Shown piece after piece: positions 2,922 through 36,757 of a stretch of 36,757 nucleotides of DNA. The notes under the pieces were generated by a model. That model saw only the letters and a program-made list of their open reading frames with translations. It was not told the DNA's origin and searched no databases. The position numbers were made by a program, and so were the translations under genes. The stretch is from Methanobacteriota archaeon (lineage in GTDB: Archaea; Thermoplasmatota; Poseidoniia; Poseidoniales; Poseidoniaceae): positions 1-36,757 of the forward strand of contig JABIGM010000001.1 in assembly GCA_018650165.1 (NCBI GenBank), read 5' to 3'. Numbering within the stretch: the first letter of the stretch is position 1; each line of letters starts with the position of its first letter.

Positions 2922-2951
2922 CTCATTAAGCCGACCCTATTGGCAGAAAGT

Positions 2952-3815
2952 ATGAGCGACCTATACGGACTCAAACTTGAACCAATGCCAAACCGTCTAG
3001 TCAACTATGGTACCACAGACAACGGTGTCGCAGTAATCGAATTAGCATCAGACTCTGCAGGTGCTCCTCTAGAAGGAGATGCTATGGGTCCTAACACTTA
3101 CACACACGGAATGATGTGCGATATTGATACTGCAGTTATCAAAGCACGTTTCGATGATAATGTTACAGTGATTGTAATCACTGGAAACGGTGCTAAGTTC
3201 TTCTCCGCAGGGGCATCTATCCAGATGCTAAACAGCGTAACTCCTGGTTTCAAGTACAATTTCTGTCTTCACGCAAACGAAACACTATCTCGTTTCGAAC
3301 AGACATCTAAGTTGGTAATTTGTGCAATGAACGGACACGCTGTTGGTGGCGGACTTGAAATCGCAATGGCTGCAGATATCAGAATCGCTCGCAAGAATGC
3401 AGGAAAGGTTGGACTTCCAGAGATCAACCTTGGTGTTCTAGCAGGAACTGGTGGAACCGCTCGCCTCACTCGCCTAATTGGTAAGGCTAAGGCTCTAGAG
3501 ATGATGGTTACAGGAGAACTAATGTCCTTCGAAGACGCAAAAGATTGCAACCTAATCAACCACATTTGGGAAGGAGACGCTGATGAATTCCGCCGAGACG
3601 TCCTAGATTGGGCTAGCCAATTCACTCTGCCAAACAAGGCAACAAAGGCTGTTGGAAACATCAAGCGTTCTTGCCAGACTGGTCCAGAGATTCCATTCGA
3701 GTATCATCTGGCACTTGAGCGTGAACTACAGGCTGCTCTATTCGGTAGCAGCGATGCTAAGGAAGGCATCGCAGCATACGTCGAGAGAAGAGTCCCGAGT
3801 TTCGAAGGCAAGTGA
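2952..3815 (+). CDS. Enoyl-CoA hydratase/isomerase (crotonase) family protein
   Basis: FFSAGASI, MNGHAVGGGLEIAMAADIR, GLPEINLGVLAGTGGT, C-terminal DAKEGIAAYVERRVPSF. TTAAG box about 25 nt upstream of ATG 2952. Confidence 0.93.
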   Translation: MSDLYGLKLEPMPNRLVNYGTTDNGVAVIELASDSAGAPLEGDAMGPNTYTHGMMCDIDTAVIKARFDDNVTVIVITGNGAKFFSAGASIQMLNSVTPGFKYNFCLHANETLSRFEQTSKLVICAMNGHAVGGGLEIAMAADIRIARKNAGKVGLPEINLGVLAGTGGTARLTRLIGKAKALEMMVTGELMSFEDAKDCNLINHIWEGDADEFRRDVLDWASQFTLPNKATKAVGNIKRSCQTGPEIPFEYHLALERELQAALFGSSDAKEGIAAYVERRVPSFEGK

Positions 3816-5416: not shown

Positions 5417-5602
5417 TTATCCCGACAAAGCCTTCCAAGTTACATTAACTAACTCGAAATAACGTACAAATAGCGGTTTCTTTGTTAAACCGAGTTTAAT
5501 AAATCCTTTCTCCAGTGGAAATGTGTAAGTAAATGTAACAAATTAATCTAAAGTAAGCAGTAATTTTGATATGTTCAGTGAGATTGGAGCGAATTGGTGA
5601 CA

Positions 5603-7876: not shown

Positions 7877-8178
7877 GTAGCGCTCGCAACGACTTGACCG
7901 CACATGCAACATCGCACGGAGGGCGCAAGCCCGATGAACTGCGATACCAATGATGTGGTCACGTGCCATCGACGAAGACCAGGGTGACTCCTCGGAGAAT
8001 GACCTCTGATGCAAACCGATGGACAATGTGGTCGGTAATGGGTCCTCGCTGGACGAGAGAGTGAGAGTGAGACAACCAACCGGCTGCACAGATAAGCCCT
8101 GACCCTGGGTCAAGCCTCCGAGGAGACAGTGACAGGGGCTGTTACGGGTCGGGGCACAGCTTTCTTTGCGATTCATTG
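7871..8178 (+). ncRNA. Unidentified ~300-nt GC-rich structured RNA candidate
   Basis: About 59% GC over 7921-8160 (hand count), visibly above the flanking genes. No credible ORF. Nested helices including a perfect 10-bp 7988-7997/8116-8125, terminal pairing and a GCAA tetraloop. G-U pairs favour the + strand. Confidence 0.55.
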
Positions 8179-8205
8179 AATAGCCATCCAAATCCAGTCG
8201 ATTGC

Positions 8206-9195
8206 ATGGCGAAGTTGGAACGCTGCTTAGTTGGCGGAACCTTCGATAGATTTCATGCCGGTCACCAGGCACTACTCAATACGGCATTAGATATTGCAGA
8301 ATTGGTTGAAGTTTGGATTGCCAATGATGCCATGTCAGACGCGAAATCACCGTTCATTCAACCATTTGAGGACCGCCGAGAAGCAATTCTCGTATGGGCT
8401 GATGAACGGATTACTACTCATGAATTAACAGATGCAGATGGGCCGGCTCCATTTCGTAAAGATTGTGATAGTATCATCTGCACGCCAGAGACTTTAGGAA
8501 ATTGCCAATCAATAAATGAAAAGAGGTTGGGTAATGGATTACTACCACTTGAAATTATTGAAGCACCTTACTGTATGGATGATGGTGGAGGGATTATTTC
8601 GAGCTCTCGGATTCGCGCAGGGTTGATTAATCGTGAAGGCAAACTGTGGTTAAACAATGATGAGAGGGCAAAAACATACCAATTCCAACCACAACTTGAT
8701 GCTGAATTAAAAGAGCCTGCAGGTGAATTATTTCTTGGACCAGAGGATGTCCCCGAAGTAGCGATGTCTGCTGCCATGGAGCATATTGCTCCTGGGTCGT
8801 TAATTGCGGTTGGAGATGTTAGCGTTGCAACTCTTCTTGATATGGACATAGTACCTGATATTGCACTTGTAGATGGGATGACCAAGCGAACCGAATTAGA
8901 AGATAAAGTCGATTTATCTCCTTTTGATGTACTGATTGATTCAATTAATCCAGCCGGACAAATCACTCCATCATTGATAGATTCAATCGACGCCGCTTTG
9001 CATAATGACCAAACAACATGTATTGAGGTCGAAGGAGAAGAAGATCTTGCTCCAATCATCATTCATCTGCTCGCTCCACTTGGAACCAATGTCATTTATG
9101 GACAACCTGGCAAAGGTGTTGTTTTGAGAATCACGGAATTCGATGCGAAAGAACACTGTCGCAGAATATTATCGCGCTTCGAGGTGATAAATTGA
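8206..9195 (+). CDS. coaD: Fused phosphopantetheine adenylyltransferase + GTP-dependent dephospho-CoA kinase (DUF359)
   Basis: N-terminal VGGTFDRFHAGH (HxGH), TPET, IISSSRIR. C-terminal LKEPAG, IAVGDVS, VDGMTKR, NPAGQIT, VEGEEDLA, VIYGQPGKGVV. Confidence 0.92.
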   Translation: MAKLERCLVGGTFDRFHAGHQALLNTALDIAELVEVWIANDAMSDAKSPFIQPFEDRREAILVWADERITTHELTDADGPAPFRKDCDSIICTPETLGNCQSINEKRLGNGLLPLEIIEAPYCMDDGGGIISSSRIRAGLINREGKLWLNNDERAKTYQFQPQLDAELKEPAGELFLGPEDVPEVAMSAAMEHIAPGSLIAVGDVSVATLLDMDIVPDIALVDGMTKRTELEDKVDLSPFDVLIDSINPAGQITPSLIDSIDAALHNDQTTCIEVEGEEDLAPIIIHLLAPLGTNVIYGQPGKGVVLRITEFDAKEHCRRILSRFEVIN

Positions 9196-15224: not shown

Positions 15225-16565
15225 ATGGCATTCAAACGCGTCCTAATAGCCAACCGTGGCGAAATCGCATTAAGAATACTCAGAGCACTTCGTGATATGG
15301 GGATTGAAGTAGCAATAATTCATGGCCGTGAAGACCGTTTATCACTTCCAGTACGCATGGCAGATGTTGCTTATCCGATAATGCGTTCAAATCCTTTAGA
15401 TTCATATTTAGATATCGAAGCAGTCATTCAAGCCGCCAAGGAATTGAATTGTGATGCTGTACATCCGGGTTATGGGTTCCTTGCAGAGAATGCACACTTT
15501 GTAAAACGCCTCGAAGAAGAAGGCATTACTTTCATTGGGCCGGCATCACATGTAATCACTTTACTTGGTGACAAAATCGAAGCAAGAGCTGCGATGGAGG
15601 CCGCTGGCCTGCCTACGGCAAAGGGCAGTAGTGAACCAATCTCTACTGTTGCAGTTGCTAGTAAATTAGCCGATGAAATTGGCTATCCTGTCATCATCAA
15701 GGCTGCAGCCGGTGGCGGAGGTATTGGTATGCAAATCGTTCATGTAGAGAATGAATTCGGAAGTGCTCTGAAACTGTGCCAAAGCCGAGCCAAATCAGCA
15801 TTCGGCGATGATCGAGTCTTCGTAGAGAAGTATATCGAAGGAGCCCAGCATGTTGAATTTCAAGTTCTTGGGGATGGGAAAACTGCAATACATTTCGGAG
15901 AACGGTTTTGCTCGATTCAACGTAGGCATCAGAAATTAGTGGAAGAAGGCCCTTGGCTTGATGAAGAAACGCGTGCAAAAATAGGAGCCCTAGTGTGCTC
16001 AGGAGCCGAATCTGTGGGCTACAAAGGCCTTGCAACGTTTGAATTTTTGCGAGATAAGAAAGGAGATTTTTACTTCCTAGAAGTCAATCCGCGTGTCCAA
16101 GTCGAGCACACGGTTACCGAATTGATAACTGGATACAATCTTGTGGAACTTGGAATTAGAGTTGCACAGGGGGAAAGTCTACCTCTTACACAGGAAGATG
16201 TAGTGATTAGAGGGCATGCAATTCAGTGCCGTTTGAATGCAGAGGATACCACGAATTTCATACCATCACCCGGAAGGTTATGGGAATGTCATTTCCCTTC
16301 TGGTTTTGGGATTCGCTGCGATACCCATGCACATCCTGGATACGAGATGCCTGGATGTTTTGATAGCCTATTAGCAAAATTACTGGCTTGGGGCCCAGAC
16401 CGAGAATCAGCAATTCGTCGAATGCGTACTGCACTGGATGAAACAATAATCACCGGAGTCGAGCATCTGATACCCTTACATCGTAGAATTATGGATGAGG
16501 AAGATTTCCTTGCAGGGGATATAACAATCGCTTACATCGAGGAACATGACCATCTCTTGGGATGA
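15225..16565 (+). CDS. accC: Biotin carboxylase subunit (acetyl/propionyl-CoA or pyruvate carboxylase)
   Basis: KRVLIANRGEIALR, HPGYGFLAEN, IKAAAGGGGIGM, CSIQRRHQKL, FLEVNPRVQVEH, DSLLAKL. The partner carboxylase cannot be assigned from this window. Confidence 0.93.
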   Translation: MAFKRVLIANRGEIALRILRALRDMGIEVAIIHGREDRLSLPVRMADVAYPIMRSNPLDSYLDIEAVIQAAKELNCDAVHPGYGFLAENAHFVKRLEEEGITFIGPASHVITLLGDKIEARAAMEAAGLPTAKGSSEPISTVAVASKLADEIGYPVIIKAAAGGGGIGMQIVHVENEFGSALKLCQSRAKSAFGDDRVFVEKYIEGAQHVEFQVLGDGKTAIHFGERFCSIQRRHQKLVEEGPWLDEETRAKIGALVCSGAESVGYKGLATFEFLRDKKGDFYFLEVNPRVQVEHTVTELITGYNLVELGIRVAQGESLPLTQEDVVIRGHAIQCRLNAEDTTNFIPSPGRLWECHFPSGFGIRCDTHAHPGYEMPGCFDSLLAKLLAWGPDRESAIRRMRTALDETIITGVEHLIPLHRRIMDEEDFLAGDITIAYIEEHDHLLG

Positions 16566-20159: not shown

Positions 20160-20624
20160 TTAATCCTTCTTCTTTTGAGAAATCATGTGCTGCTTAATCG
20201 CCTTAGCATCATCCCAATCACTAATTTCTTCTTCAGTAACAGGCGTGAATTGAGGAATTGGAATCGGTCTCATGTTTGAATCGATTGCTACCATGAAGAA
20301 ATAGCCTTCACAGATTTCAGTCTTAGTCCAGTCGGATTTGCTCATGGCCCATGCGGTGACTTTTGAACAAGCAGTACGGTTTGACGTATAGACAATTTTT
20401 GCAGTTACTTCAATTAAATCTCCCTGGCGCGCAGGTGCCTTAAATTCGAGAGTGTCGATAGATATTGTTACAAATTCGCGGTGAGCGAATTTGGCGCAAA
20501 CGATGCCAGCAGCTTTGTCCATTACTGATAATAGTCGGCCGCCAAAAAGGGTATTGTAAGCATTTGTATCCTGGGGAAACACTTCTTCGATGAGTGTAAC
20601 AGGTTCAGTACTGAATGGTTCCAT
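20160..20624 (-). CDS. Acyl-CoA thioesterase (HotDog fold, YciA-like)
   Basis: VFPQDTNAYNTLFGGRLLSVMDKAAG, VTISIDTLEFKAP, FFMVAID. Confidence 0.93.
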   Translation of the reverse strand: MEPFSTEPVTLIEEVFPQDTNAYNTLFGGRLLSVMDKAAGIVCAKFAHREFVTISIDTLEFKAPARQGDLIEVTAKIVYTSNRTACSKVTAWAMSKSDWTKTEICEGYFFMVAIDSNMRPIPIPQFTPVTEEEISDWDDAKAIKQHMISQKKKD

Positions 20625-21383: not shown

Positions 21384-21483
21384 ACTTCTCCGAGTCCCCC
21401 CTTTAGGGGGGAATCCATAGTGTACACTCCCCCGTCGGTCTTTTATGCCCGCCGTGAGTGGAGGAGAGGAGAGGGCGCCACCC

Positions 21484-24400
21484 ATGAATGACAATAATAA
21501 TGCAATCACCGCTTTGGTTTTTACTTGTTTGATGCTAATTTCGCCTTTGGCGGGAGCCGCTTCAGTGACTACTTTCGGCAGTGGTGACTCTGAAATCACA
21601 GTGGAAGTTCGAGATAGCCCTGAATACACCAATAGCGAGGACGGAACCGTTACATTGCCCTCCGGTGCAACAGTAACCGGAGCTTCAGTAAAGATCTCAA
21701 CAGATATGGCGACCCATGAAACATTTACAACTATCAATTCAGAAACTGCTCAGTATGTCTGGGATCCAGTTTACAATAACCAGCAAACAGAATACTCAAC
21801 ACTTAGTGATTTCACATATCATGAAGATACAGTCAAACTAGTCAGTGGTGGGCTCTCTACTGATTTTGAACGTAGTTCTTCTGGTTTCTGGGACCATACA
21901 CAACCGCCAGTTTACGATGGAACTGGATGGCAGCATGGCACTCTAGCAGATTCTACAGTACTCAATGATAATTGTAACACAGGTAATGATTGCTGGGGGA
22001 CAAATTTGTTTGACAACGATAATGATTACACTAATGACGACCAAGGATCTTCGTTTTCTTACAATTTAATTACACCGGAAATGGAAGTAGACCCAAGTTC
22101 CCATATTGCTCGTTTTTCTAGTTGGCATGGCCTTCATTGGTCTCAAACAAACCCAGGTACTAATCCAACCAATACCTATTATGACTGCGCATATGTAATG
22201 GTTAGAAATTCTTCATCACCAAGTTTCCCTCCTCCTGATGTTGGATGGTCACATCTACCATTTGATGCAACAAACTCAACTGGAGTGAATTATGCTAACG
22301 GATTATATCCAATCGGCAGCGGTAATGGGAAAATTCAGAATTGTGATTCTCTAACAGGTACCGACTACGCTCTTGGAGGCGAATCGACTCACCCAACTAG
22401 TAACCCTAATGGCTGGGCTACTCTTGCTCTGAACCTTAACCAACACATTCACAAGTATGTCCAACTTAAGTTCGTAATGAGTTATAATTCAGGTTCTGGA
22501 ACTCCTGAGAATAGTACCATGCCGGGTTGGTTTATCGACGATTTCCGCATAGGCGACCCATTACCACAATCAGGTTCTATGTCTGTCAAAGGATTTACTC
22601 CTAAGCAATCCCCTAGCCCTGGATTTCCAGATGGATACGGAATACTTACTCTAGAGCAGGAAACCACTCCAACCAACTCACTAACAGTAACTATTCTTCG
22701 TGGAGGAACCACAGATATTGCACTAGATAGAGATGGCAATCAGATGACTGGGCTAGAAGGCCCAATTATCGAACTTTGGGGAATTGATGCAGCAGATTAT
22801 CCAGTGATTGATTTGAGATTTGATTTTGATACTGGGCAATACAAACTATCTACGGCTGTTCTTCATGGCTTGAATATTGGTACACGTATTGGTACTGGAT
22901 TAAATGATACAAACGTTGTATTCAATCCAATGATCATGGATGGTGTATGGCAATCTCCGGGAACCAACCAGCCGTTGATGTATGCACCCTCAATTTTAGA
23001 TAATTCATTCAATCCTCCGTTGTACCGTAATAAATTTTCACAACCGATAGTTGGAATTACTCCGCAGATAATTGATGACTGTGTAGAAGAACCGTCAATT
23101 ATGATTAGTCTACGTGATAACTCTATGCACAATAATTTAACGAATGGACAAAAGTGGGTTCCTTCTGAACCTATTTTTGGATTCGCTTCTATGCTATCCT
23201 ATGCCAATCCTTGTGGAATGTCAGAAATGTGGTTTGACTTGGAATTTGGTCATTCAGCTACAGGTGTCTCTTTGGATATTGCAAATGATGGTGACATCGA
23301 ATGGGCAATGAATGAACCAGCATTTGGCGGATTTGGTCGACAAACTACTTTGTGGTCAGGGTACTCAAATGGCATAAACTATGGTGTTGATGAATCCACT
23401 CTGACACTAAACTCCAATGGTGAAGCAACAGGCGGCCGTTTCATGCTACCAATCGGTGCTGATGTGAAAGCCGCAGATGTTATCTTCGCAGATAATACAG
23501 CAAACGATTTCACTCTATCTCTAAGTTCAGATGGACAAGAAGTTGCATTGGGAACTATGCCTAACCAAACAATACTAGCGCACGAAACACTCGAAACAAT
23601 GTTTGATTTCGAGAGTGCACTAATCTCTTTGCTAAACAACCCCTTAGTTAACCCATCTCACACTGATGCTTATGGAAACGATTGGGCAACATTCCAATTC
23701 AATGTCGTAAATAATAACGCTTCAAGTGGTACACAAGTAACGGTCCGTAACCTCGATGTAGTTTATGACTGGGATACAGTTCTAGACGGTTCGATTAATT
23801 TCGATAGAGAATTGAATCAAGGAATTGCATTAGGTACTGGGGCAACCGTCGATGTTCCATTATCCCTCTCTGCAAATAGTGGGGGCGCAGTTAACCTTTC
23901 AGAACTCTCAATTACAACATCCTCAGGTTATGACTCATCTCTAACATTAACTGGAAGTCCAGAAGGCCTGTATCCAAATGGAGACATTATTGAGGCTATT
24001 TCTATCCATAGTGTTGAGCAATCCACAGGAACCTCATTTGCTGAGGCTAGACTTCGCATGGAATCTTCCAGCGGAGTTGTAGAACTATCATTCTCTGAAT
24101 TGACACTATTTACAGAATCATATGACCCTTGGAATCTTATCTCTTTGGAGTCATCATCCTATAATGAAGTTGGAGATGAAATGCATATTACCTGGAGATT
24201 TAGAATAAACACTGCTTGGGAAGATACAGCAGAATTACGATTATATGCAAGTTTGATTGGTGCTGATGGCGTCAACGGACTACCAGGTGCTGTTGTTCTT
24301 GCTCCAGCCAATGGAAATGCAATAGAAAATGATGCAATGATATCAACCTTTGAGTTACAAAATGACGCAGGAGAAGTGCAAAACCTCGCTTCAGCTAGTT

Positions 24401-27300
24401 CTAATCAGAACATCAATCTGATTGGAAGTATTCGCTTAGAGGGTCTAGATGTTTCACCTGACCCTACATCATATAATCTATCTTTACAGCGTTGGGATGT
24501 CCAATCTATCAATGGCACAATTGTTTCTGAATGGGTTGAAGTCACTAATACATCTGGTGTAATTGGTGGCGACTTTGATTGGGCAGTAAATCTTGGATTA
24601 ACTGCTGCGGGACAGGCATCTTACCGATTCATGATCGATGGATATGTAGGTGGAGACACACTTTGTCCAGCAATACCAATTATTGCAGATGCAGACTGTG
24701 CGATTCCATTTAATCTATCAATCGATACTTATTCACCTACTTTAGTGAATATCTCTGTTCTTAAGGCCTCAAATTATGACCCAACTATCTGGTCTAATTG
24801 GAGAGGACTAGTTGATGACACATGGGTTCTTCCAAATGCTCAGCAAAAAGTACGTGTTCTAGCACAAGATATTCCAGCACCTCCTAGTACCCTTGAAATG
24901 TACTACTGGGTTGAATATGACCACGACACTGATTTTGATGGAATCGCAGACCCTGACGAGTACGTGACTCTCACTCTTGTTAGCGATGGTGAAGCGCCTA
25001 CTGCAAACTATACAGGCACCTTTAGCGATGATGCCAACAAAGGACAAGATCCTCCCGGCAAGGTCAGTATTTACATTGAAGGTAATGACTTAGGTGGAAA
25101 TGCAATCGAAGGCGGAGCTTATGGATTTGAAGATGATTTAGTAACCTATGTTTCAATGGATGCTAAGACCCCTAATATCAGGAATTTCTTTATCGAGAAT
25201 TCTGATGGTGAGCGCCTACATAATCCAAACGAGGGTGCACCATTCTACCAAGGACCATGGAACATGAGTATGTATGCTGGAAATGAATATCACCTAATCG
25301 TTGAAGCAACAGATGAGAATGGATGGAGGGATATCAATTACTTCGAAATCGATCTTGGACCTGAAAATATGGTTGTATACTATTCACCTCGCAATGAGAC
25401 TGCATGGGCGGATACAACGGATATCGAAATCGTTACTGCAAGTAATACTAGCGAAGGAGCTCAGGTTTTGCGAATGGATGGAGGTCGACTAATTGACCCA
25501 TTCGAGGATGAATTTTACTTAGACTTGCCAATTCGTATGAATTGGGATATCATCGGAATTGGTTCAACAACCTATGTTCCTCAATTACGAATCAAGGACA
25601 TGGATAGAGACCCTTCACTAATGAGTGAATCTGGCGGTCGTCACAAGCAGCGTTGGGTTTACAGCGATGGAATACAGTTGGATTTCAGAAATGGAATCAG
25701 TCCAACATTTAGCGACCTGTCTTACCCATATTCGCAAGATGTTACCGTGGCATTCGTTTTCCCCGGAGATACTGTTGCAATGGAAGGGCAGTACGCTTAC
25801 TTAGATGGAATTAACAACGGTGTTTATGTTCTACCCGAAGGTGAATTTACGATTGAAGTAACTCGCGTGGAAGCAATGATGGATGGTGGAAAGGGATACC
25901 TCGCCTATCCAGCAGGTGGTGCAGATGGTTCCCGTACCGATGGTCCAACCTTGCACACAATTGATGGTGGAGCATTCAATATCAACATTACAGCTCCTCC
26001 ATTGTCTAATGAATACACATACAATTTCCGTCTAATAAATCTGCCAGTTGGCGCAACAGACACTACAGCATCAATTTGTGATGGAAATAGTGCCTTTGGT
26101 TGTGCTTCATTCAAGATTAAGGTCGATGGTCAACAACCAGAGATTGAGAAGGATTCATGGAGAGCAATATCTGGAATTAACCAAGAAGTACTTGGAAACA
26201 CTATGCCTTCGTCCACTATGCACTGTGTTGATGTCCAAGCAATAGTTGAAGAAAACGCAGCATTACTTGCAGGTGAAGTAGACCTCAAGTGGTCTTTCTA
26301 CTCGGATGCTGATTCAAATCTGACATGGCCAGTATATGGGCAGAAATTTGGTGCTGAACCACAATCTCATTCACTTGGTCTTAAGATACAAGGCGGAGAT
26401 TATCTTGTTAGCGCAGACTGTGTTGATTTGTGGCCAGACCCTCAAGATCCAACCCAGGCTCAAATCACAACTATTGACTTAGTGATGTGGATTGAAGGAA
26501 GAGACTCTGCAGGATGGGCAATTGAAGGTGGAGGGCCAAACAGTGCAGGAGGAATCAGTTCAATTTGGTCTTCTAACCCAGAACACAATTCACAATACAG
26601 GTTAGTTCATGAACAGGCCAAGTTCAGTGTTATCGATGTAAGAATGACACCGAAGAGCCCAGAAGTAGGCGACGTACCAGAACTTGAGATATCTCTGCAG
26701 AACATTGGAACCAAAGATGGAAACATTACTCTAGAAATTCAATCTGTTACAGATGGTGAATTCCCTACAACTGAATTTACATGGACCACTGGAGATATCC
26801 CGCAAGGCGAATTGTCCAATATATTCGTAAAAGATTTGGAAATTTTCGCATCACCTACCAGTGGAATGTACTTCCTCGTAGTAGATGCAGATTCGAATGA
26901 AGTACTGTGGAACGGTTCGCAGAATTCTAAGTCTTTCAACGTTGCAGAAGCGAGTGATGATGAGGGGCTACTATCAGGTTCAGGAATGCTAATCGTTATT
27001 GGACTAGGTGCATTAATTCTGATTCTATTGGTCGCAGTAGTTGTTCTAGTAAAGCGCGATTCTGGCGACCCTTCATACGAGTATGAATACGAGTATGAAG
27101 ATGAAGAGAAAGCCTATGCAGAAATTCCATCTGCAGGAGGAGCCGGTCCTCCACCTTCAGCAGCACCAGCGGCAAATGTTGACCCATTGATGGCAGCAGC
27201 TCTGGCCGAATTCCCACAGTGGGATCAAGAGACGATCCAAGGTTACTTTGACCAAGGATGGGATATCGATACGCTCAGAGACTGGGTAAACAATCAGTGA
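21484..27300 (+). CDS. Giant (about 1940 aa) secreted, C-terminally membrane-anchored surface glycoprotein/adhesin-like protein
   Basis: Signal peptide AITALVFTCLMLISPLAGAA; SD GGAGGAG before ATG 21484; T/S/D/N/G-rich beta content; GWFIDDF-type beta-sandwich module; many N-x-S/T sequons; TM MLIVIGLGALILILLVAVVVLV; cytoplasmic tail. Confidence 0.9.
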   Translation: MNDNNNAITALVFTCLMLISPLAGAASVTTFGSGDSEITVEVRDSPEYTNSEDGTVTLPSGATVTGASVKISTDMATHETFTTINSETAQYVWDPVYNNQQTEYSTLSDFTYHEDTVKLVSGGLSTDFERSSSGFWDHTQPPVYDGTGWQHGTLADSTVLNDNCNTGNDCWGTNLFDNDNDYTNDDQGSSFSYNLITPEMEVDPSSHIARFSSWHGLHWSQTNPGTNPTNTYYDCAYVMVRNSSSPSFPPPDVGWSHLPFDATNSTGVNYANGLYPIGSGNGKIQNCDSLTGTDYALGGESTHPTSNPNGWATLALNLNQHIHKYVQLKFVMSYNSGSGTPENSTMPGWFIDDFRIGDPLPQSGSMSVKGFTPKQSPSPGFPDGYGILTLEQETTPTNSLTVTILRGGTTDIALDRDGNQMTGLEGPIIELWGIDAADYPVIDLRFDFDTGQYKLSTAVLHGLNIGTRIGTGLNDTNVVFNPMIMDGVWQSPGTNQPLMYAPSILDNSFNPPLYRNKFSQPIVGITPQIIDDCVEEPSIMISLRDNSMHNNLTNGQKWVPSEPIFGFASMLSYANPCGMSEMWFDLEFGHSATGVSLDIANDGDIEWAMNEPAFGGFGRQTTLWSGYSNGINYGVDESTLTLNSNGEATGGRFMLPIGADVKAADVIFADNTANDFTLSLSSDGQEVALGTMPNQTILAHETLETMFDFESALISLLNNPLVNPSHTDAYGNDWATFQFNVVNNNASSGTQVTVRNLDVVYDWDTVLDGSINFDRELNQGIALGTGATVDVPLSLSANSGGAVNLSELSITTSSGYDSSLTLTGSPEGLYPNGDIIEAISIHSVEQSTGTSFAEARLRMESSSGVVELSFSELTLFTESYDPWNLISLESSSYNEVGDEMHITWRFRINTAWEDTAELRLYASLIGADGVNGLPGAVVLAPANGNAIENDAMISTFELQNDAGEVQNLASASSNQNINLIGSIRLEGLDVSPDPTSYNLSLQRWDVQSINGTIVSEWVEVTNTSGVIGGDFDWAVNLGLTAAGQASYRFMIDGYVGGDTLCPAIPIIADADCAIPFNLSIDTYSPTLVNISVLKASNYDPTIWSNWRGLVDDTWVLPNAQQKVRVLAQDIPAPPSTLEMYYWVEYDHDTDFDGIADPDEYVTLTLVSDGEAPTANYTGTFSDDANKGQDPPGKVSIYIEGNDLGGNAIEGGAYGFEDDLVTYVSMDAKTPNIRNFFIENSDGERLHNPNEGAPFYQGPWNMSMYAGNEYHLIVEATDENGWRDINYFEIDLGPENMVVYYSPRNETAWADTTDIEIVTASNTSEGAQVLRMDGGRLIDPFEDEFYLDLPIRMNWDIIGIGSTTYVPQLRIKDMDRDPSLMSESGGRHKQRWVYSDGIQLDFRNGISPTFSDLSYPYSQDVTVAFVFPGDTVAMEGQYAYLDGINNGVYVLPEGEFTIEVTRVEAMMDGGKGYLAYPAGGADGSRTDGPTLHTIDGGAFNINITAPPLSNEYTYNFRLINLPVGATDTTASICDGNSAFGCASFKIKVDGQQPEIEKDSWRAISGINQEVLGNTMPSSTMHCVDVQAIVEENAALLAGEVDLKWSFYSDADSNLTWPVYGQKFGAEPQSHSLGLKIQGGDYLVSADCVDLWPDPQDPTQAQITTIDLVMWIEGRDSAGWAIEGGGPNSAGGISSIWSSNPEHNSQYRLVHEQAKFSVIDVRMTPKSPEVGDVPELEISLQNIGTKDGNITLEIQSVTDGEFPTTEFTWTTGDIPQGELSNIFVKDLEIFASPTSGMYFLVVDADSNEVLWNGSQNSKSFNVAEASDDEGLLSGSGMLIVIGLGALILILLVAVVVLVKRDSGDPSYEYEYEYEDEEKAYAEIPSAGGAGPPPSAAPAANVDPLMAAALAEFPQWDQETIQGYFDQGWDIDTLRDWVNNQ
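27076..27099 (+). repeat. Exact 12-bp tandem duplication (TACGAGTATGAA x2) encoding YEYEYEYE
   Basis: Seen directly in the sequence. Confidence 0.85.
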
Positions 27301-27306
27301 TTCATT

Positions 27307-28104
27307 ATGAACCTTGACTGGGATGATATCCATTGGGAAGACCCCGATGGAGGTACAATTGTACTACACGGTATATTGCCAACGGTGGTTTTGCCAAATA
27401 AAATGCGACCGCGATTCCAGTGGCATGGATTAGGTATCATGGGCACCAGCGAGGAAGAAGAAGTCTGGGTCGAAGAAGAGAAATCTGAAATTAAAGACGC
27501 TGGAATCAATCTTGATAGTGCGATTCTAAATGGCGGCCTTGACGGACTTTATCTTGAAATGTTGAGATGGATTGATGGATTACAAGTCGGTAGATTTCCC
27601 GATCCGGAGCCACGCAGATTACATAAAACCGCATTGAAGCACAGCCGTCCAATATTTTTCGCAGAACCCGATATGGATGATGATGACTGGGCTGATTTTT
27701 TAGAGAGGGAAGCGAAAGAAATGACTCGCCCTCTCAAGTTATTGAAAATTGTCTTTACATCTCGCCGTTGGCGAAAGAGCATCAAAAAGATGCGTAAGAA
27801 AGTAGTGCCGCAGCCCCCTCGGGAGCCTGATGACCTCCAAGCAGCTAGCGCTTTAGCCGCTGTATGGTGGTCATTAAATCGCGAAAATTCTGATAAGAAA
27901 CTAAACGTAGAGAAAGATGAACGCTTTGCAGCACGACTTAGAGGAGGCTTGGCGCAATTGCGAATCGAGCATGGAGCCGAAGCGGTGCTTCTAGTACCAA
28001 TCCAGCAGGCGTGGAGGGAATCAATGCTCAGCTCGTTAGAAAAGTTACCTAATCCAGAGGAGAGTTCATCACTCTCAAGCACTTCGGATGGAGAGGAGGA
28101 GTGA
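27307..28104 (+). CDS. Conserved hypothetical protein (possibly degenerate TraB/PrgY-like fold)
   Basis: Intact 265-aa ORF tightly coupled to both neighbours. Fold suggestion is weak. Confidence 0.75.
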   Translation: MNLDWDDIHWEDPDGGTIVLHGILPTVVLPNKMRPRFQWHGLGIMGTSEEEEVWVEEEKSEIKDAGINLDSAILNGGLDGLYLEMLRWIDGLQVGRFPDPEPRRLHKTALKHSRPIFFAEPDMDDDDWADFLEREAKEMTRPLKLLKIVFTSRRWRKSIKKMRKKVVPQPPREPDDLQAASALAAVWWSLNRENSDKKLNVEKDERFAARLRGGLAQLRIEHGAEAVLLVPIQQAWRESMLSSLEKLPNPEESSSLSSTSDGEEE

Positions 28105-28646
28105 CAATGAGTGGAACAAATAGCATCGAAGTTCGTGTTGAAAATCTGCTAGTACGATTCACTCCAACACCTTCTGTAGACCTTGAAGAAGCGATTGAAC
28201 GCCTCGGCGGAGTAAGAAATGGTGATGTCATAATCAAGATGTTAGATGCGCCACGTGCAACTCTCATAATTGATGAAAAGGGTCGAATAATTGTCCATGG
28301 TACTCATCGAATAGAAGCGGCGAGGGCTGCAGCAAAGGAAATGTTACTTCGTATGGGGAGAAATGATTCTGGATTAATTGCTGAACTAGGGCCAATTGTG
28401 GCTTCCTTTGATTTTGGCGAGGAAGTTCCAATTCACAACATTCGTTCTAATCTTGGTAGTGGTACAACATCAATTGACGAAAGACTGGGTTGTTTACGCC
28501 TTAATGATACTAGGCATGATTTGGAATTATTAATTTGGCCGACCGGGAAATGTGTTGCTTTAGAAGCGCGCCATCCAAATATGGTTGCCATGGCCGCAGT
28601 TCATTGGAAAGGAAAATTTGCTGATAAAAAATCGCTTAAGGCGTGA
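28101..28646 (+). CDS. Highly divergent TATA-binding-protein (TBP)-fold protein
   Basis: Two ~85-aa repeats resembling TBP: VRVENLLVRF..VDLEE...LDAPRATLIIDEKGRIIVHG and GPIVASFDFGEEV...LELLIWPTGKCV. GTG overlaps the upstream stop; ATG 28107 is an alternative start. Confidence 0.7.
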   Translation: MTMSGTNSIEVRVENLLVRFTPTPSVDLEEAIERLGGVRNGDVIIKMLDAPRATLIIDEKGRIIVHGTHRIEAARAAAKEMLLRMGRNDSGLIAELGPIVASFDFGEEVPIHNIRSNLGSGTTSIDERLGCLRLNDTRHDLELLIWPTGKCVALEARHPNMVAMAAVHWKGKFADKKSLKA

Positions 28647-30722: not shown

Positions 30723-30743
30723 CACCTACCCTAAGGGTAGGTG
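30723..30743 (+). promoter_or_regulatory. Perfect 9-bp hairpin covering the SD of fabI
   Basis: CACCTACCC-TAA-GGGTAGGTG. The AGGTG SD-like element is in the 3' arm, 6 nt before ATG 30750. Confidence 0.6.
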
Positions 30744-30749
30744 CTAATC

Positions 30750-31544
30750 ATGCTTAGATTACAAGGTAAAGTTGCATTTGTTTTTGGAGTTGCCAGCGAG
30801 GACTCAATCGCTTGGGCAATTTGCAAAAGTTTAGCCGAAGCCGGGGTGACATTATATCTCGGATATCAGAAAAGATTCATGTCTCGAGTTTTCCAATTAA
30901 AAGACAAATTGCCAGCGATTGCGGGGTTCTATCCTCTTGATGTAGCGACCGATGCCGATACAAAAGAATTCTTTGACAAATTCAGTGAAGAAAACCCCGG
31001 GCTAAAAGCGGATATTTTGATTCATGCAATCGGTTTCGCACCACGTGAGTGTTTCGATAGGCCGATTCTATTCGTCGATGATGATAAAATTAACACTGCA
31101 TTTACAATCTCTGCTAACTCTCTACAACGCTGTTTGAAGTTTGCAATACCATATCTCAATCCAGGCTCATCTACGATTACTCTAACTTACGCTGCATCTA
31201 CACGCCATGTGCCCTCCTATGGAATAATGAGTATGGCAAAAGCAGCACTTGAATGCTGGACTCGAGAACTCGCCTGTCACCTTGGACCAGAAGGTCACAG
31301 AGTCAATGCAATTTCAAGTGGACCAATTCGAACGATTGCAGCAAGTGGCATTCCGGGGTTTGATAATATCCTAGATCATGTGGCTGCCAATTCACCTCTT
31401 AGAAGAAATGTGAATCAATCGGATGTCGCAGGGTGTACTACCTGGCTTGCAAGCCCATTAGCATCGGGGGTTACTGGTCAGTGCATCCATGTTGATGCCG
31501 GTTATTCCATCACAATGGTGCCTTCGAGCATAATGGGTGAGTGA
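30750..31544 (+). CDS. fabI: Enoyl-[acyl-carrier-protein] reductase (FabI-type SDR)
   Basis: FGVASEDSIAWAI, LIHAIGFAP, YGIMSMAKAALE (Y-x2-M-x3-K), RVNAISSGPIRTIAASGI, GVTGQCIHVDAG. Confidence 0.93.
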   Translation: MLRLQGKVAFVFGVASEDSIAWAICKSLAEAGVTLYLGYQKRFMSRVFQLKDKLPAIAGFYPLDVATDADTKEFFDKFSEENPGLKADILIHAIGFAPRECFDRPILFVDDDKINTAFTISANSLQRCLKFAIPYLNPGSSTITLTYAASTRHVPSYGIMSMAKAALECWTRELACHLGPEGHRVNAISSGPIRTIAASGIPGFDNILDHVAANSPLRRNVNQSDVAGCTTWLASPLASGVTGQCIHVDAGYSITMVPSSIMGE

Positions 31545-31549
31545 ACCAA

Positions 31550-34500
31550 ATGACAATCACTACAGCAGACGGTAAAGCCTGTGATGGCCTTGAGCAAGCT
31601 CCTTTTGAGCCGATTGCAGTAATTGGTATGGCGGCACTGATGCCTGATGCTGCAAGCACCGAGCAATTCTGGCAGAATATTATCGATGCTCACGTTTCTA
31701 TCAAAGAGGTCCCGGTAAACCGCTGGGACCCTGAGATCTATTGGGAGGATGGCTCACCTGGGAATGTTAGCGAAGGCAAAACCTACTCTAAAATCGGTGG
31801 CTTCATCGAAAATTATGAATTCGATTGGCGCCGTTGGAGGCAACCCCCGGGCACACTTCCTCAAATCGACCCATGTCAATTGTGGGCTGTAACCGTCTCG
31901 GCGGATGCGATTACCAATGCAGGTTATGGCGATGATGGAAAAATTCTAGATCGCTCCCGAACAGGCGTGATTTTTGCTAATGCACTGGGTGGAGAAAATC
32001 GTTCTGAATCCAATATCCGAATCTACAGTGCCGAAATGAGAAAAATCGCACTGGATAATGGTGCAACTATTGAGCAAGCCGATGCGATGGTTGCAAAAAT
32101 GTGCGAAGGGAAGCCACGTATCGATGAAGATACTATGCCTGGTGAACTTGCAAATGTTGTAAGTGGAAGAGTGGCCAATCTACTAGACCTCCAAGGTCCA
32201 AATTATTCTACAGATGCAGCATGTGCTTCATCGATGGCAGCATTACTGGATGCCTGCCGTCTACTTCAAACCAGACAAGTCGACACAATGCTTGCTGGTG
32301 CAACCGACCGATGCATGGAGGCTCCGACTTATGCAAAGTTTAGCGCCATTGGTGCACTTTCTCCATCACATTCCACTCCATTCGATGCGAGAGCAAATGG
32401 GTTCGTCATGGGTGAAGGCGCCGGTGTTCTTCTTCTGAAGAGATTATCAGATGCAATTCGAGACGGAGATGATGTCAAGGCGGTTGTTCGTGGCGTAGGT
32501 GGTTCTTCAGATGGGCGAGGTAAAGGCATCACTGCTCCAAGCCAACGTGGGCAAGTCCAAGCTGTTAGTCGCGCATATTCACAGGCAGGGTATTCGCCAT
32601 CATCGGTTGAATTAGTCGAAGCACATGGGACCTCTACCAAAGTTGGAGATGCTACTGAATTATCGACGCTATCTTTACTGTGGACTGGATTAGATGGAGG
32701 CGATCATATTGCAGTCGGTTCGGTGAAGAGCCAAATTGGGCATTTGAAAGCAGCAGCAGGAATTGCTGGAATCATGAAAGCATGCAATGCCGTATATCAC
32801 AGAACAATTCCGCCAAGTGCTGGTTTTGAGACTCCTAATCCAACTGTAGAATGGAATCAAATTCCGTTCTTCGTACCGACTGAGGCGCGCGATTGGCCTG
32901 AACCAGAAACAAACCCACGCCGAGCCGGAGTCTCAGCATTTGGTTTCGGCGGCACCAATTTCCACGTAGCAATCGAAGGCTTCGACCCTCAGTACCATGC
33001 AAAACTCGTGTCACACTGGGATGGAAGATGGGAAGCATATGCCGGAATCGAATCAAGTTCTAGCGCTGAGGCATCACTCACTCATGAGGAATTGAAAGAT
33101 GTAGAAGGTGGATTATTACTTTTATCTGGGGATACGATTGAATCTGTAAAATCGAAATTAAGTACAATCTCATTTAGCAGCACAACATTTGATGAAGACC
33201 CAAATGGCATTCGTCTTTCCTTTACTTTGTCAGAAAATTGGTCATTTGAGACAAGCGATTCCGTAAGAATGGCAATTTCGGCAACAAGTTGGGCTGAATT
33301 CAACAAGCGCAAAGAACTTGCAACTAATTCAATAGAAGACAAAGCCAAGTGGGGATTCTTGGCGAGTCAGGGAATTCAGATTAGTGATGAGCCAGCATTA
33401 CCTTCCAATGCTAAAGTAGCACACATGTATCCCGGACAAGGCAGCCAATATGTTGGTATGACTATGGATTTGCACAGGAGATATTCCGGTGTAGTTGATG
33501 TCTGGAACAAAGCCGATGTCACAATGGTCGATGTTCTTGATGGAGAATCCCTCTCATCGTTCGTATTACGTTCCAATCTTACCAAAGAAGAAAGTGTCGA
33601 AGCAGAACACAAACTGAAACAGACTGAATATACGCAACCTGCTATGCTAACCGCCGATCTTGCAATCGAAGCAGCATTCAATGCGCATGGGCACAAACCT
33701 GACATGGTTGCTGGGCACAGTTTGGGCGAATATGCTGCACTAATGAGCGCTGGAATCCTCAATATGGACGGTGCACTTCGTGCAGCAGCAGCCCGCGGAA
33801 CTGAAATGGGTAGTGTTCAAATTGACGATAAGGGCCTGATGGCAAGCGTGACTGCTCCTTACGAGCATATTGCGCAAATTCTTGAAGAAATCGACGGGTA
33901 TGTCATTGCTGCAAACAAGAACTCCCCTCGGATGACTGTAATTGCAGGAGAAACCGGACCCGTCAAAGCAGCGATGTCCCGTTTTGAAACCGAAGGATTC
34001 CAATGTGTGGCATTGGCAACAAGTCATGCATTCCATTCTAGAATCGTTGCTCCAGCAAACGTGCCATTACGTAAATTCCTCGAAAGTTTGGAAATCGGAT
34101 GGCCAAAAATCCCCCTAACTAGCAACGTTGATGGAGGATGGTATCCAATGGATGACGGCAGTGATTCGAAAGTTGCAATTCTTTCAAAACTCGCCCCTCA
34201 GATGGCATCCAGCGTCGAATGGACTACTCAAATCAATACAATGTATGATGCAGGCGCAAGAATGTTCGTTGAAGTTGGACCGAAACGGGCACTGACTGTA
34301 TTCGCTTCACAAATTCTCGAAGGTAGGCCTGCACTCCCAGTTATGTCAAATCACCCAAAAGCGGGCGGAATTGCAACGTTCCTTTCTGCTTTAGGAACCA
34401 TGGCACTTGCAGGGAGAGTCCCGCAATGGCCGGACCGAAATAGCCCACGCCTAACAGATGCATTCCGCGCAGGGCCAATTGAATCACGAGATAGAATTTC

Positions 34501-36757
34501 ACAACCAGCAACTTCTCTCAAGGAACGAAGTCGCCCTCTGCCATCTAAAGGCGGGGTAGCAGTTACGACTACAATTGTTCAATCTACAGAAACCTATGTG
34601 GACCCCGATTTGGCAAAGAAAAATTTGGTTGGAGATTTGATTTCAGCACAGACCGGATATCCTTCGAAATTTTGCCAAGGGAATGTGGATATGCGCGCAG
34701 TATTGGGTATGAGCGATGCTCAAATCCAAACGGTGATTTCATCTGTTCATACCCGATGTAGTACAGACCCTGAGTGGGACATTACCATTGCAAAAACTCC
34801 TGGTGACATCACTAGATGGATTACGGATGCTTTGATACAAGAGAGTCGTACACAGATAACAACGCAAGATAATCGTGGTGAAGACCCATTTGTGATAACT
34901 GGAATTTCCCTTGGCCTACCCGGCGGCGAAAGAGTCTTTGATACGGGTAATTTTGAGAAGTTAGTTCGAGGAGAAACCTGTATCAGCGAAGTTACTGATG
35001 ACTACAAACAACGTTTGCTTGACAAAAATATTGTTCGTCTAATCAAAGGCCGTGACGGCAGTGTTGGAATGGAATCTGCAAAAGAATTCGGAGATATTCC
35101 CCAACTTGCCGGAATAAAAGGTGCGTTTGATCCAACTGATGAATTTGGAATTGATGCTAAGATTGCTGCCGCTTGGGACATAAGTACACAACTTGCTTGT
35201 GCAGCGGGGCTAATCGCTCTGAAAGATGCAGGAATTCCATTGATGCCAGTTGAACAAGTTGGTAAGGGCGGATTACGTCTAATTCGCTCTTGGCAAATGC
35301 CATCGAGTTACCGAGATAGGACTGGAATTGTATTCGCATCTTGTTTCGCAGGCCATCAAATGGCTGCAAAGCATGCTAAGGTCGATGGTGATGACGGTGA
35401 GGGACGATTTGATCGTCGCTATCTATTCCAAATATTGAACATGGGCCATTCACAATTCGCTCAACATGTTGGTATCCGTGGCCCCAACACTACAATCAAT
35501 CTAGCATGCGCTTCAGCTACTGCTGCATTTGGCGTAGCGGAAGATTGGCTTGCAACCGATAGATGTGACCGCGTGGTAATAATTTCTGCAGATGATGTAA
35601 CTGGAGACGATTTATGGGAATGGATTGGCTCTGGTTTTGCTGCAAGCGGTGCAGCAGCAACCAACAATGTAATCGAAGAAACCGCATTACCATTCGACCG
35701 TAGAAGAAATGGTTTGATTTTAGGAATGGGCGCAGCCGCATTCGTTATTGAAAAGAAATCACAATCCGATGCGAGAGGAGTCCAGCCTATTGCAGAATTA
35801 CTTGGGACAAAGGTTGCAAACTCTGCATTCCATGGAACGCGTCTAGATGTTGAGCATGTAGCCACAACCGTCAATCAATTCATCGAAGAGATGGAAGTTA
35901 AGTGGAATCTTGACCGCCATGTAATGGCGCCAGACACCGTGTTTTTCTCTCATGAAACATTTACTCCTGCACGAGGAGGCTCCGCTCAAGCCGAGGTCAA
36001 AGCTCTTCGAGATACCTTCGGCCAAAGTACAGATTCCATTGTAATTGCAAATACCAAAGGTTTCACTGGACATCCAATGGGAGTAGGTATCGAAGATGCA
36101 TCTATGTTCTATGGGTTAATGACGGGACGGATTCCACCAATTGCGAACCACAAAGAGGTTGACCCTGAACTTGGTAATCTAAATTTATCAAAGGGTCAAG
36201 CATATCCTAATTTAAGGTACGGAATGCGATTTGCTGCCGGATTTGGTAGCCAAATCGGACTATCGCTTGTACGTAAATGTGATTACTCCGGTGACAGAAT
36301 TGACAAACAAAAATTACTAACTTGGAATCAGTCCTTAGCAGGAACGTCAAATCTAGAGTTACGTGTTTTACAAAACAAGTTGGTCGCATATGTTGACGGA
36401 GAAAATAATCTTCACGGAGGCATCCAAGGTGAAGAATACGCCAATGCTTCCGAGTATTCTGCAGTACCAGCCCCAATTGTTGTTGAAACGAAACCTGAAC
36501 CAACGCCAGTTCCTAAAATAGTTACAGCACCTATCGAAGTTCCAACACCACAACCGGTTGCAACACCTGTTGCTGTTACAGTTACAGCAGATAGTAGTGA
36601 TGTCAAGCCTAAGTTGATCGGCGTTGTAGTCAAACATACAGGCTATCCTGAAGATTTCATTGAGATGGACCAAGACCTAGAAGGTGAACTGGGAATTGAT
36701 ACAGTAAAACAAGCCGAAATTATGGGAGATGTAAGAGAGATTTTCTCTTTACCAGTC
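31550..36757 (+). CDS. Type I iterative PKS/FAS (Pfa-like) megasynthase, 3' end outside window: KS-AT-ACP-like-KS-linker-ACP...
   Basis: Manual translation, frame checked at intervals; at least 1736 codons, absent from the ORF track because no stop lies in the window. KS1: EPIAVIG, DAACASS (Cys 32222), EAHGTST (His 32624), KSQIGHL (His 32741). AT: YPGQGSQ, GHSLGE (Ser 33719), HAFHS. KS2: NLACAS (Cys 35507), SHETF (His 35951), TKGFTGHP (His 36071). ACP: TGYP...DLEGELGIDTVKQAEI. Alternative GTG start at 31541. Confidence 0.93.
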   Translation, partial: MTITTADGKACDGLEQAPFEPIAVIGMAALMPDAASTEQFWQNIIDAHVSIKEVPVNRWDPEIYWEDGSPGNVSEGKTYSKIGGFIENYEFDWRRWRQPPGTLPQIDPCQLWAVTVSADAITNAGYGDDGKILDRSRTGVIFANALGGENRSESNIRIYSAEMRKIALDNGATIEQADAMVAKMCEGKPRIDEDTMPGELANVVSGRVANLLDLQGPNYSTDAACASSMAALLDACRLLQTRQVDTMLAGATDRCMEAPTYAKFSAIGALSPSHSTPFDARANGFVMGEGAGVLLLKRLSDAIRDGDDVKAVVRGVGGSSDGRGKGITAPSQRGQVQAVSRAYSQAGYSPSSVELVEAHGTSTKVGDATELSTLSLLWTGLDGGDHIAVGSVKSQIGHLKAAAGIAGIMKACNAVYHRTIPPSAGFETPNPTVEWNQIPFFVPTEARDWPEPETNPRRAGVSAFGFGGTNFHVAIEGFDPQYHAKLVSHWDGRWEAYAGIESSSSAEASLTHEELKDVEGGLLLLSGDTIESVKSKLSTISFSSTTFDEDPNGIRLSFTLSENWSFETSDSVRMAISATSWAEFNKRKELATNSIEDKAKWGFLASQGIQISDEPALPSNAKVAHMYPGQGSQYVGMTMDLHRRYSGVVDVWNKADVTMVDVLDGESLSSFVLRSNLTKEESVEAEHKLKQTEYTQPAMLTADLAIEAAFNAHGHKPDMVAGHSLGEYAALMSAGILNMDGALRAAAARGTEMGSVQIDDKGLMASVTAPYEHIAQILEEIDGYVIAANKNSPRMTVIAGETGPVKAAMSRFETEGFQCVALATSHAFHSRIVAPANVPLRKFLESLEIGWPKIPLTSNVDGGWYPMDDGSDSKVAILSKLAPQMASSVEWTTQINTMYDAGARMFVEVGPKRALTVFASQILEGRPALPVMSNHPKAGGIATFLSALGTMALAGRVPQWPDRNSPRLTDAFRAGPIESRDRISQPATSLKERSRPLPSKGGVAVTTTIVQSTETYVDPDLAKKNLVGDLISAQTGYPSKFCQGNVDMRAVLGMSDAQIQTVISSVHTRCSTDPEWDITIAKTPGDITRWITDALIQESRTQITTQDNRGEDPFVITGISLGLPGGERVFDTGNFEKLVRGETCISEVTDDYKQRLLDKNIVRLIKGRDGSVGMESAKEFGDIPQLAGIKGAFDPTDEFGIDAKIAAAWDISTQLACAAGLIALKDAGIPLMPVEQVGKGGLRLIRSWQMPSSYRDRTGIVFASCFAGHQMAAKHAKVDGDDGEGRFDRRYLFQILNMGHSQFAQHVGIRGPNTTINLACASATAAFGVAEDWLATDRCDRVVIISADDVTGDDLWEWIGSGFAASGAAATNNVIEETALPFDRRRNGLILGMGAAAFVIEKKSQSDARGVQPIAELLGTKVANSAFHGTRLDVEHVATTVNQFIEEMEVKWNLDRHVMAPDTVFFSHETFTPARGGSAQAEVKALRDTFGQSTDSIVIANTKGFTGHPMGVGIEDASMFYGLMTGRIPPIANHKEVDPELGNLNLSKGQAYPNLRYGMRFAAGFGSQIGLSLVRKCDYSGDRIDKQKLLTWNQSLAGTSNLELRVLQNKLVAYVDGENNLHGGIQGEEYANASEYSAVPAPIVVETKPEPTPVPKIVTAPIEVPTPQPVATPVAVTVTADSSDVKPKLIGVVVKHTGYPEDFIEMDQDLEGELGIDTVKQAEIMGDVREIFSLPV

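Follow-up and report, generated by a model that had tools for sequence, protein, structure and literature searches.

Among known systems, the closest to the one described here are the Type R clusters for secondary-lipid synthesis, which occur in Koribacter, Solibacter, Elusimicrobium minutum and Roseiflexus. Such a cluster has a single pfaA homolog, with the domain order KS-MAT-'CLF'-ACP(3-6)-KR, followed by a gene encoding a phosphopantetheinyl transferase (PPTase); its description mentions neither serine nor threonine at the attachment site of its carrier domains (acyl carrier protein, ACP) (Shulse & Allen 2011, PLoS One 6:e20146, PMC3098273). We analyzed a stretch of 36,757 nucleotides (hereafter "the window"), which is the entirety of contig C27 (JABIGM010000001.1) in the draft genome (1.75 Mb, 80% complete) of an archaeon from Marine Group II (MGII). 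The last gene of the window encodes a megasynthase, and the contig ends inside an ACP of this gene whose attachment site reads GIDT, i.e., has Thr in the place of Ser. Judging from the sequences of this ACP and its relatives, it is likely that a cognate PPTase phosphopantetheinylates the Thr of these ACPs. Neither a Thr attachment site nor the MGII synthase was the subject of any paper found in full-text literature searches.

By gene order and domain architecture, as predicted from sequence, the MGII system matches the uncharacterized Type R synthases. It has the same domain order (plus a DH domain) and a PPTase gene directly downstream, and for the Type R member E. minutum there is a record with four tandem DLGIDTVKQ repeats and a PPTase open reading frame (ORF) in the same 8-kb stretch. 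However, the MGII host is archaeal, its synthase has 2-4 ACPs, the 'CLF' keeps its Cys and a FabI gene lies upstream. The MGII synthase also resembles PfaA of the bacterial and thraustochytrid polyunsaturated fatty acid synthases, in that these share the arrangement KS-MAT...tandem ACPs-KR-DH', have a dedicated PPTase (PfaE) and have an ACP motif that is little different (LGIDS(I/V)K in PfaA, LGIDTVK here). In contrast to PfaA, it has an extra KS (KS2) and a pseudo-ACP between the AT and the ACPs, its attachment residue is Thr instead of Ser, and the surroundings of the gene showed no PfaB, PfaC or PfaD partners. The PfaA model TIGR02813 is the best NCBIfam match yet is below its cut-off (919.5 vs. 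1010.1 bits for the full-length ortholog P0006); the two pieces of the window's gene score 609.6 and 208.1 bits. Another comparison, made by description only, is to the enediyne polyketide synthases (PKSE), which are iterative type I enzymes with a self-contained PPTase, all on one KS-AT-ACP-KR-DH-PPTase chain. Many Thr-type members of the present family similarly fuse the PPTase at their C terminus, but PKSE has one Ser-ACP and no second KS.

The elements contributed by our analysis are the joining of two contigs, the evidence for roughly three collapsed ACPs, the codon tally, the count of Ser/Thr changes on a tree, the use of the pseudo-ACP as a control, the count of fused PPTases and the null result for a Thr-specific PPTase residue.

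Threonine at the attachment column

The visible C terminus of the megasynthase ORF reads, after a linker, DQDLEGELGIDTVKQAEIMGDVREIFSLPV. GIDT is encoded by nt 36692-36703 and the Thr codon, ACA, lies at 36701-36703 on the forward strand. A Pro/Thr/Val-rich linker (approximately 36458-36600) precedes the ACP, which begins near 36605 and occupies 36605..36757 (+), so that about 52 of its roughly 78 residues are in the window. This fragment has no Pfam score by itself; joined to its continuation on another contig (C52, see below), it forms a 73-residue ACP that scores 30.9 bits against PF00550 (E 3.3e-7, cut-off 20.8). Alignments with PDB sequences place the Thr at the GxDS Ser of PigH, Plasmodium and other ACPs. 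An AlphaFold (AF2) model of the domain (pLDDT 90.1) has helices at residues 2-14, 35-48 and 65-76, with Thr35 as the first residue of helix II, and Foldseek's top matches to this model (the first 50 listed) consist of ACPs or of complexes that contain an ACP (TM ~0.8). The profile and the helical fold are thus those of PF00550, while the Ser of (D/E)xGxDS is replaced by Thr. On the basis of translation, profile, alignments and model, we consider it confirmed that this is a genuine phosphopantetheine-binding (PP-binding) domain with Thr in the Ser position, as the preliminary description had stated.

It might be supposed that the codon results from a sequencing or assembly error, that the gene is a pseudogene, or that bacterial DNA has contaminated the archaeal bin, given that the draft is incomplete and that the contig terminates within the ACP. 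However, a sequencing error, which the preliminary description had raised against its own claim, is excluded by independent seawater metagenomes and one metatranscriptome with the same codon, as well as by hundreds of homologs with Thr. Positions 35800-36757 have no differing letter in comparison to contigs of two DNA runs and two metatranscriptome libraries, with the ACA codon itself covered by the two DNA runs and one RNA library, and a nearly unaltered copy of the stretch is present in 14 marine metagenome runs, which come from at least nine studies. The gene is intact, with an ORF that stays open through the contig join for a total of 2659 aa. As for contamination, the best protein matches are to Candidatus Poseidoniales/Poseidoniaceae (Marine Group II archaea), and the contig also holds Cdc6/Orc1, an ORF resembling the TATA-binding protein (TBP) and an archaeal-type fused phosphopantetheine adenylyltransferase/dephospho-CoA kinase (PPAT/DPCK); it is therefore not a bacterial contaminant. 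Of the genomes sampled, homologs occur in 58 of 58 from the organism's own family, in 13 of 36 from the sister family and, in more remote form (30-37% identity, 3000-3800 aa), in several further families of the phylum. The codon, homolog and contig results already refute this explanation, to which we assign practically no weight.

Thr at this column is, on the available sequences, a family-wide rule in bacteria and archaea and no peculiarity of this gene. Within the organism's own family (MGIIa), all 2-4 ACPs of every examined ortholog read LGIDTVKQAEIM. The preliminary description had proposed to check whether GIDT is conserved in orthologs and downstream ACP repeats, and in this family Thr was found throughout. 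Across 49 genomes of the phylum, Thr is present in 145 of 151 ACP copies and Ser in 6. All four Thr codons are used in the 145 copies (ACG 64, ACC 42, ACT 25 and ACA 14), which indicates turnover of the codon under retention of the amino acid. An exhaustive HMMER search with the ACP-KR-DH tail gave 1630 representatives of 50%-identity clusters below 1e-30, and the ACPs of the best 150 of these 1630 have 299 Thr versus 24 Ser. Over a set of 741 unique ACP domains, drawn from archaea and numerous bacterial phyla, the attachment column is 96% Thr and 4% Ser. In addition, scanning species-representative genomes for the pattern DLGIDTVKQ revealed at least 120 stretches, and most matches listed are tandem arrays. 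The matches listed belong to Elusimicrobia (including E. minutum), Acidobacteria, Chloroflexi, Acidimicrobiia, Desulfobacterota (including the cultured Desulfocicer vacuolatum DSM 3385), Myxococcota, Gemmatimonadota, Spirochaetota and Heimdallarchaeum.

The distribution of the two residues suggests that Ser and Thr are interchangeable in the evolution of these ACPs. On a FastTree phylogeny of KR-DH tails (134 rows), from which the ACPs themselves were excluded, the Ser/Thr label changes at least 7 times, and 5-6 of these changes are forced by well-supported branches. Ser lineages are nested within Thr clades, e.g., three MGIIb genomes reading GIDSIKQAEIM. Moreover, both residues can occur within one protein: the successive attachment residues are STTTTT in one locus (L034) and STS in Candidatus Heimdallarchaeum aukensis (L066, CP084166.1). 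The megasynthase ORF of L066 also has a fused PPTase domain on the same chain as its Ser, Thr and Ser ACPs.

The megasynthase itself contains an internal control in the form of a degenerate ACP-like domain, or pseudo-ACP, at aa 1029-1074 (34625..34762, +), located between the AT and KS2. Its similarity to the ACP profile is clear (hhalign probability 96.2%, E 2.3e-9), but it reads TGYP...LGMSD, with LGMSD where true ACPs have LGIDT. This is the sole other ACP-like stretch in the visible part of the protein and it has Asp at the attachment column; the preliminary description was thus correct that no canonical Ser-ACP is visible there. In 85 orthologs the column is D64/E16/A2/N1/P1/T1, whereas the tandem ACPs have a hydroxyl residue in more than 99% of cases. 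It follows that a non-carrier copy loses the hydroxyl and that the tandem ACPs keep it. The pseudo-ACP is probably what remains, structurally, of a carrier domain. We also considered the pseudo-ACP as the "real" Ser carrier, and rejected this idea because conservation is lacking at its neighboring Ser and the attachment column holds Asp or Glu.

These alignments also bear on the possibility that the phosphopantetheine sits elsewhere in the domain or in the linker, such that the Thr of the canonical column is a structural substitution. Two other Thr columns, in the motifs TGYP and PTL, are about 98-99% conserved, and could be proposed as the site. However, the threonines of TGYP and (P/R)TL are also present in PfaA ACPs of Ser type, which carry the arm on Ser. 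Within the 741 domains no other position has a conserved Ser, and appreciable alternation with Ser occurs only at the canonical column (4%, versus about 1% at the two other Thr columns). The canonical column is also at the N terminus of helix II, as in all solved holo-ACPs. We regard a site elsewhere as very improbable.

The paired PPTase and the priming of threonine

To our knowledge, the phosphopantetheine arm is attached to a conserved Ser in every carrier protein that has been studied. This Ser is stated as the rule in reviews and textbooks and is assumed by annotation rules and active-site checks for the carriers of polyketide synthases, nonribosomal peptide synthetases and fatty-acid synthases. 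The preliminary description offered two accounts of the Thr: either the system primes Thr, with the help of a special PPTase, or the ACP is inactive and a Ser-ACP lies downstream. The second account is refuted. On C52 the gene continues as ACP-KR-DH-stop with no Ser-ACP, and the full-length orthologs of the organism's own family have 2-4 tandem ACPs, all with Thr. Nor was a Ser-ACP found elsewhere in the genomes of relatives, in that a genome-wide PF00550 search of five near-complete relatives (one of them a single contig) found no PP-binding domain outside the megasynthase; every match, at 32-41 bits, lies inside it.

A candidate cognate PPTase was found. Its gene, of Sfp type, follows the megasynthase stop on C52 (L003:618-1304, -; PF01648 36.4 bits, cut-off 25) and is the single PF01648 match of the genome. 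In the five near-complete relatives the lone PF01648 match is likewise directly downstream of the megasynthase, and the downstream gene is kept in those Poseidoniales loci for which the retrieved or assembled sequence runs beyond the synthase gene. Another 66 family members have a PPTase domain fused at the C terminus of the long ORF, and 58 of these 66 ORFs bear ACPs on the same chain, of which 55 are Thr-only, 1 is Ser-only and 2 are mixed.

The catalytic motifs of the PPTase, G[IV]D.E and W..KE...K, are intact and are those of ordinary Sfp-type enzymes. Residues G110, D112, E114, W148, K151, E152 and K156 are invariant in 12 Poseidoniales PPTases. The PF01648 score above the cut-off together with the GxDxE and WxxKExxxK motifs identifies the protein as Sfp-type, and no curated NCBIfam PPTase model matches it. 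The motifs are present across the wider family, with the exception of L043. In this locus, which belongs to a Ser-type system of MGIIb (genome G063), the PPTase has WMAIEA in place of W..KEA, so that the Lys is replaced by Ile. A separate observation is that MGIIa PPTases (L003:618-1304 (-), L004-L032) extend past the catalytic domain in a conserved C-terminal tail, ...EDDLLDAT...PDFxVGCKTxRN, which the MGIIb, bacterial and fused forms in the same alignment lack.

We propose that the protein would function as a PfaA-like, Type R iterative megasynthase with the order KS-AT-pseudoACP-KS2-ACP(~3)-KR-DH. With the FabI-type enoyl reductase (ER) gene upstream and the Sfp-type PPTase gene downstream, three genes would encode every step of the fatty-acyl elongation cycle. 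The tandem ACPs would be working carriers, with the phosphopantetheine arm on the Thr hydroxyl of LGIDTVKQ. Installation of this arm by the co-encoded PPTase would follow the usual chemistry, i.e., a Mg2+-dependent attack by the side-chain hydroxyl on the beta-phosphate of CoA. The presence of the Thr and its place in the ACP fold are seen directly, as are its conservation, the interchange with Ser and the exclusive pairing of PPTase and ACP; from these we infer that the Thr is actually modified and that the product would be a fatty-acyl chain. Of the first account in the preliminary description, the idea that the system primes Thr is therefore favored, based on the 96% to 4% ratio, the repeated interchange and the adjacent or fused PPTase. 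The idea of a special PPTase stands only in part, as a candidate cognate enzyme exists but has ordinary Sfp-type motifs, and no residue was found in it that tracks Ser or Thr.

A broader claim, which we hold on balance though with slightly less assurance than the modification of these ACPs, is that O-(4'-phosphopantetheinyl)-threonine is a natural and widespread modification. It would be the normal carrier state in a very large Type R/PfaA-like megasynthase family that spans bacteria, Marine Group II and other Thermoplasmatota, and Asgard archaea, and a clade of Sfp-type PPTases inherited together with the synthases would install it. In ocean archaea that are abundant, the modification would arm a complete fatty-acyl synthase of the ACP-dependent kind. 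As to why Thr is used, we can only guess that it ties the ACPs to their own PPTase or that it stabilizes the linkage. The former would account for the strictness of the co-inheritance.

Several points weigh against priming of Thr. The only experimental precedent that we can cite is negative: an S36T variant of the Escherichia coli carrier AcpP could not be modified with 4'-phosphopantetheine and failed to complement an acpP deletion (PMC3340395). AcpP S36T likewise has Thr at the attachment column and is a non-functional mutant that AcpS cannot modify, whereas the MGII Thr is a selected state with its own Sfp-type PPTase. In addition, Thr-linked phosphopantetheine was not found in full-text literature searches, and this silence may mean either that the modification is undescribed or that it does not occur. 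Finally, in an alignment of PPTases with Thr-only, Ser-only and mixed partners, no column tracks the residue of the partner, although with about three independent contrasts this comparison has low power. There is thus no structural rationale for how the enzyme accepts the extra methyl group. A predicted complex of PPTase and ACP (using the PPTase's own alignment, CoA, Mg and the ACP alignment) scored 0.91 and one unrelated-protein control scored 0.72; we count this prediction neither way.

The E. coli result would be expected if the Thr-ACPs are unmodified and serve as scaffolds or docking modules, with the chain carried on CoA or another thiol, as in proposed ACP-independent archaeal fatty-acid synthesis. 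The same protein already includes one non-carrier ACP-like fold, and archaea, as far as we know, are generally without ACP. However, unmodified ACPs do not account for a PPTase that is always adjacent or fused, has intact motifs and is the sole PPTase found where these are the sole carrier domains found. They also do not account for a column with more than 99% hydroxyl residues while the pseudo-ACP drifted to Asp or Glu. Where carriers are at work, the multiplication of ACPs in tandem serves throughput (Shulse & Allen, PMC3098273). Moreover, the trait is mostly bacterial, so that an explanation specific to archaea does not fit. We consider the scaffold role unlikely, although it is the least unlikely of the alternatives to Thr priming.

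Another alternative accepts that the Thr hydroxyl is functional but supposes that it bears a different group, e.g., a direct O-acyl oxoester, a phosphate or another CoA-derived moiety, which the PPTase homolog would transfer. What is conserved is limited to the hydroxyl, and the PPTase is divergent and falls outside every curated NCBIfam PPTase family. On the other hand, it retains the Sfp-type Mg2+- and CoA-binding motifs; the KS, AT, KR and DH are ordinary thioester-handling domains with their active-site residues in place; and the Ser-type members of the family resemble ordinary PfaA ACPs. A different group on the Thr seems to us improbable, more so than an unmodified scaffold.

If phosphopantetheinylation of Thr is true, the Ser rule would have a large natural exception. 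PPTase specificity would then be broader than thought, or a Thr-adapted clade would exist, and a Thr-ACP with its own PPTase could be an orthogonal pair of carrier and activator for engineering. The system is also of interest for archaeal lipids. The archaeal enzyme for the glycerol-1-phosphate backbone is missing from all of 270 Poseidoniales genomes, while nearly all of them encode glycerol-3-phosphate dehydrogenase (PMC6461757). A complete predicted ACP-dependent acyl-chain synthase in 58 of 58 sampled MGIIa genomes provides a concrete set of genes for the question of fatty-acyl chains in these abundant archaea. In one survey, type I polyketide synthases were the second-largest class of biosynthetic clusters in marine archaeal genomes.

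Probable collapse of ACP repeats and layout of the locus

The final 68 bases of the window exactly match one end of C52, and it is this overlap that joins the two contigs. The remainder of the megasynthase, i.e., the rest of the ACP, the KR, a PKS-type DH and the stop, is encoded at L003:1312-4137 (-) on C52. However, the simple join, with one ACP and 2659 aa, was rejected as the true length of the gene, because full-length Candidatus Poseidoniales orthologs have 2760-3040 aa and 2-4 ACPs and because read depth is about three times higher over the ACP core. In two independent metagenome runs this depth increases from 19.7 to 59.9 in one and from 29 to 68.8 in the other, and in both runs the assembled contigs break at 36617-36646. 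The break is most simply explained as a tandem repeat of about three ACPs, probably collapsed from roughly 36617 onward, in which case the draft genome under-counts ACPs. A PF00550 search of the organism's own genome had zero matches; since its sole assembled ACP is split between two contig ends, this result is not evidence of absence.

The megasynthase gene occupies 31541..36757 (+) in the window and is open at its 3' end. Its visible part (KS1-AT-pseudoACP-KS2-linker-ACP) has 1739 aa when counted from a GTG codon and 1736 aa from the first ATG. Pfam places a KS at aa 23-430 and an AT at 629-924, followed by a second KS. KS1 (31607..32830, +; PF00109/PF02801) has its Cys in DAACASS (nt 32213-32233) and both His motifs. 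The acyltransferase (33425..34312, +) is of malonyl type, with the motif GHSLGE (PF00698 E 3e-34; TIGR00128 fabD 2.8e-56). KS2 (34883..36457, +; the second PF00109 stretch) is in the 'CLF' position of Type R synthases. It retains a nucleophile Cys in NLACASAT (nt 35498-35521), which pairs with the Cys of KS1 in a BLASTP alignment, and its His-containing motifs are at the expected positions. The interdomain linker, which in translation is also rich in Ala, extends over 36458..36604 (+).

Upstream, a FabI-like enoyl-ACP reductase is encoded at 30741..31544 (+), and its stop overlaps the start of the megasynthase gene. It matches Pfam PF13561 with E 5e-67, and NCBIfam FabI models at about 1e-63, below their cut-offs. 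The gene is also upstream in related loci whose fetched DNA extended that far. Its product would provide the ER step in trans.

The synthase contig has further genes. An ORF at 8176-9192 (+) is the archaeal-type fused phosphopantetheine adenylyltransferase and GTP-dependent dephospho-CoA kinase (DUF359), which combines the last two steps in the synthesis of CoA, the donor of the phosphopantetheine arm. A biotin carboxylase (15225-16565, +) might supply malonyl-CoA and a 4HBT-family thioesterase (20160-20624, -) might release the chain; an enoyl-CoA hydratase is encoded at 2940-3815 (+). Two long ORFs, of 1951 aa (21445-27300, +) and 760 aa (5594-7876, +), and a 265-aa ORF (27307-28104) have no Pfam match. 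A 181-aa ORF (28101-28646, +) has one TBP repeat only (PF00352, residues 99-166), and so by its sequence appears to be a short or divergent TBP-like gene.

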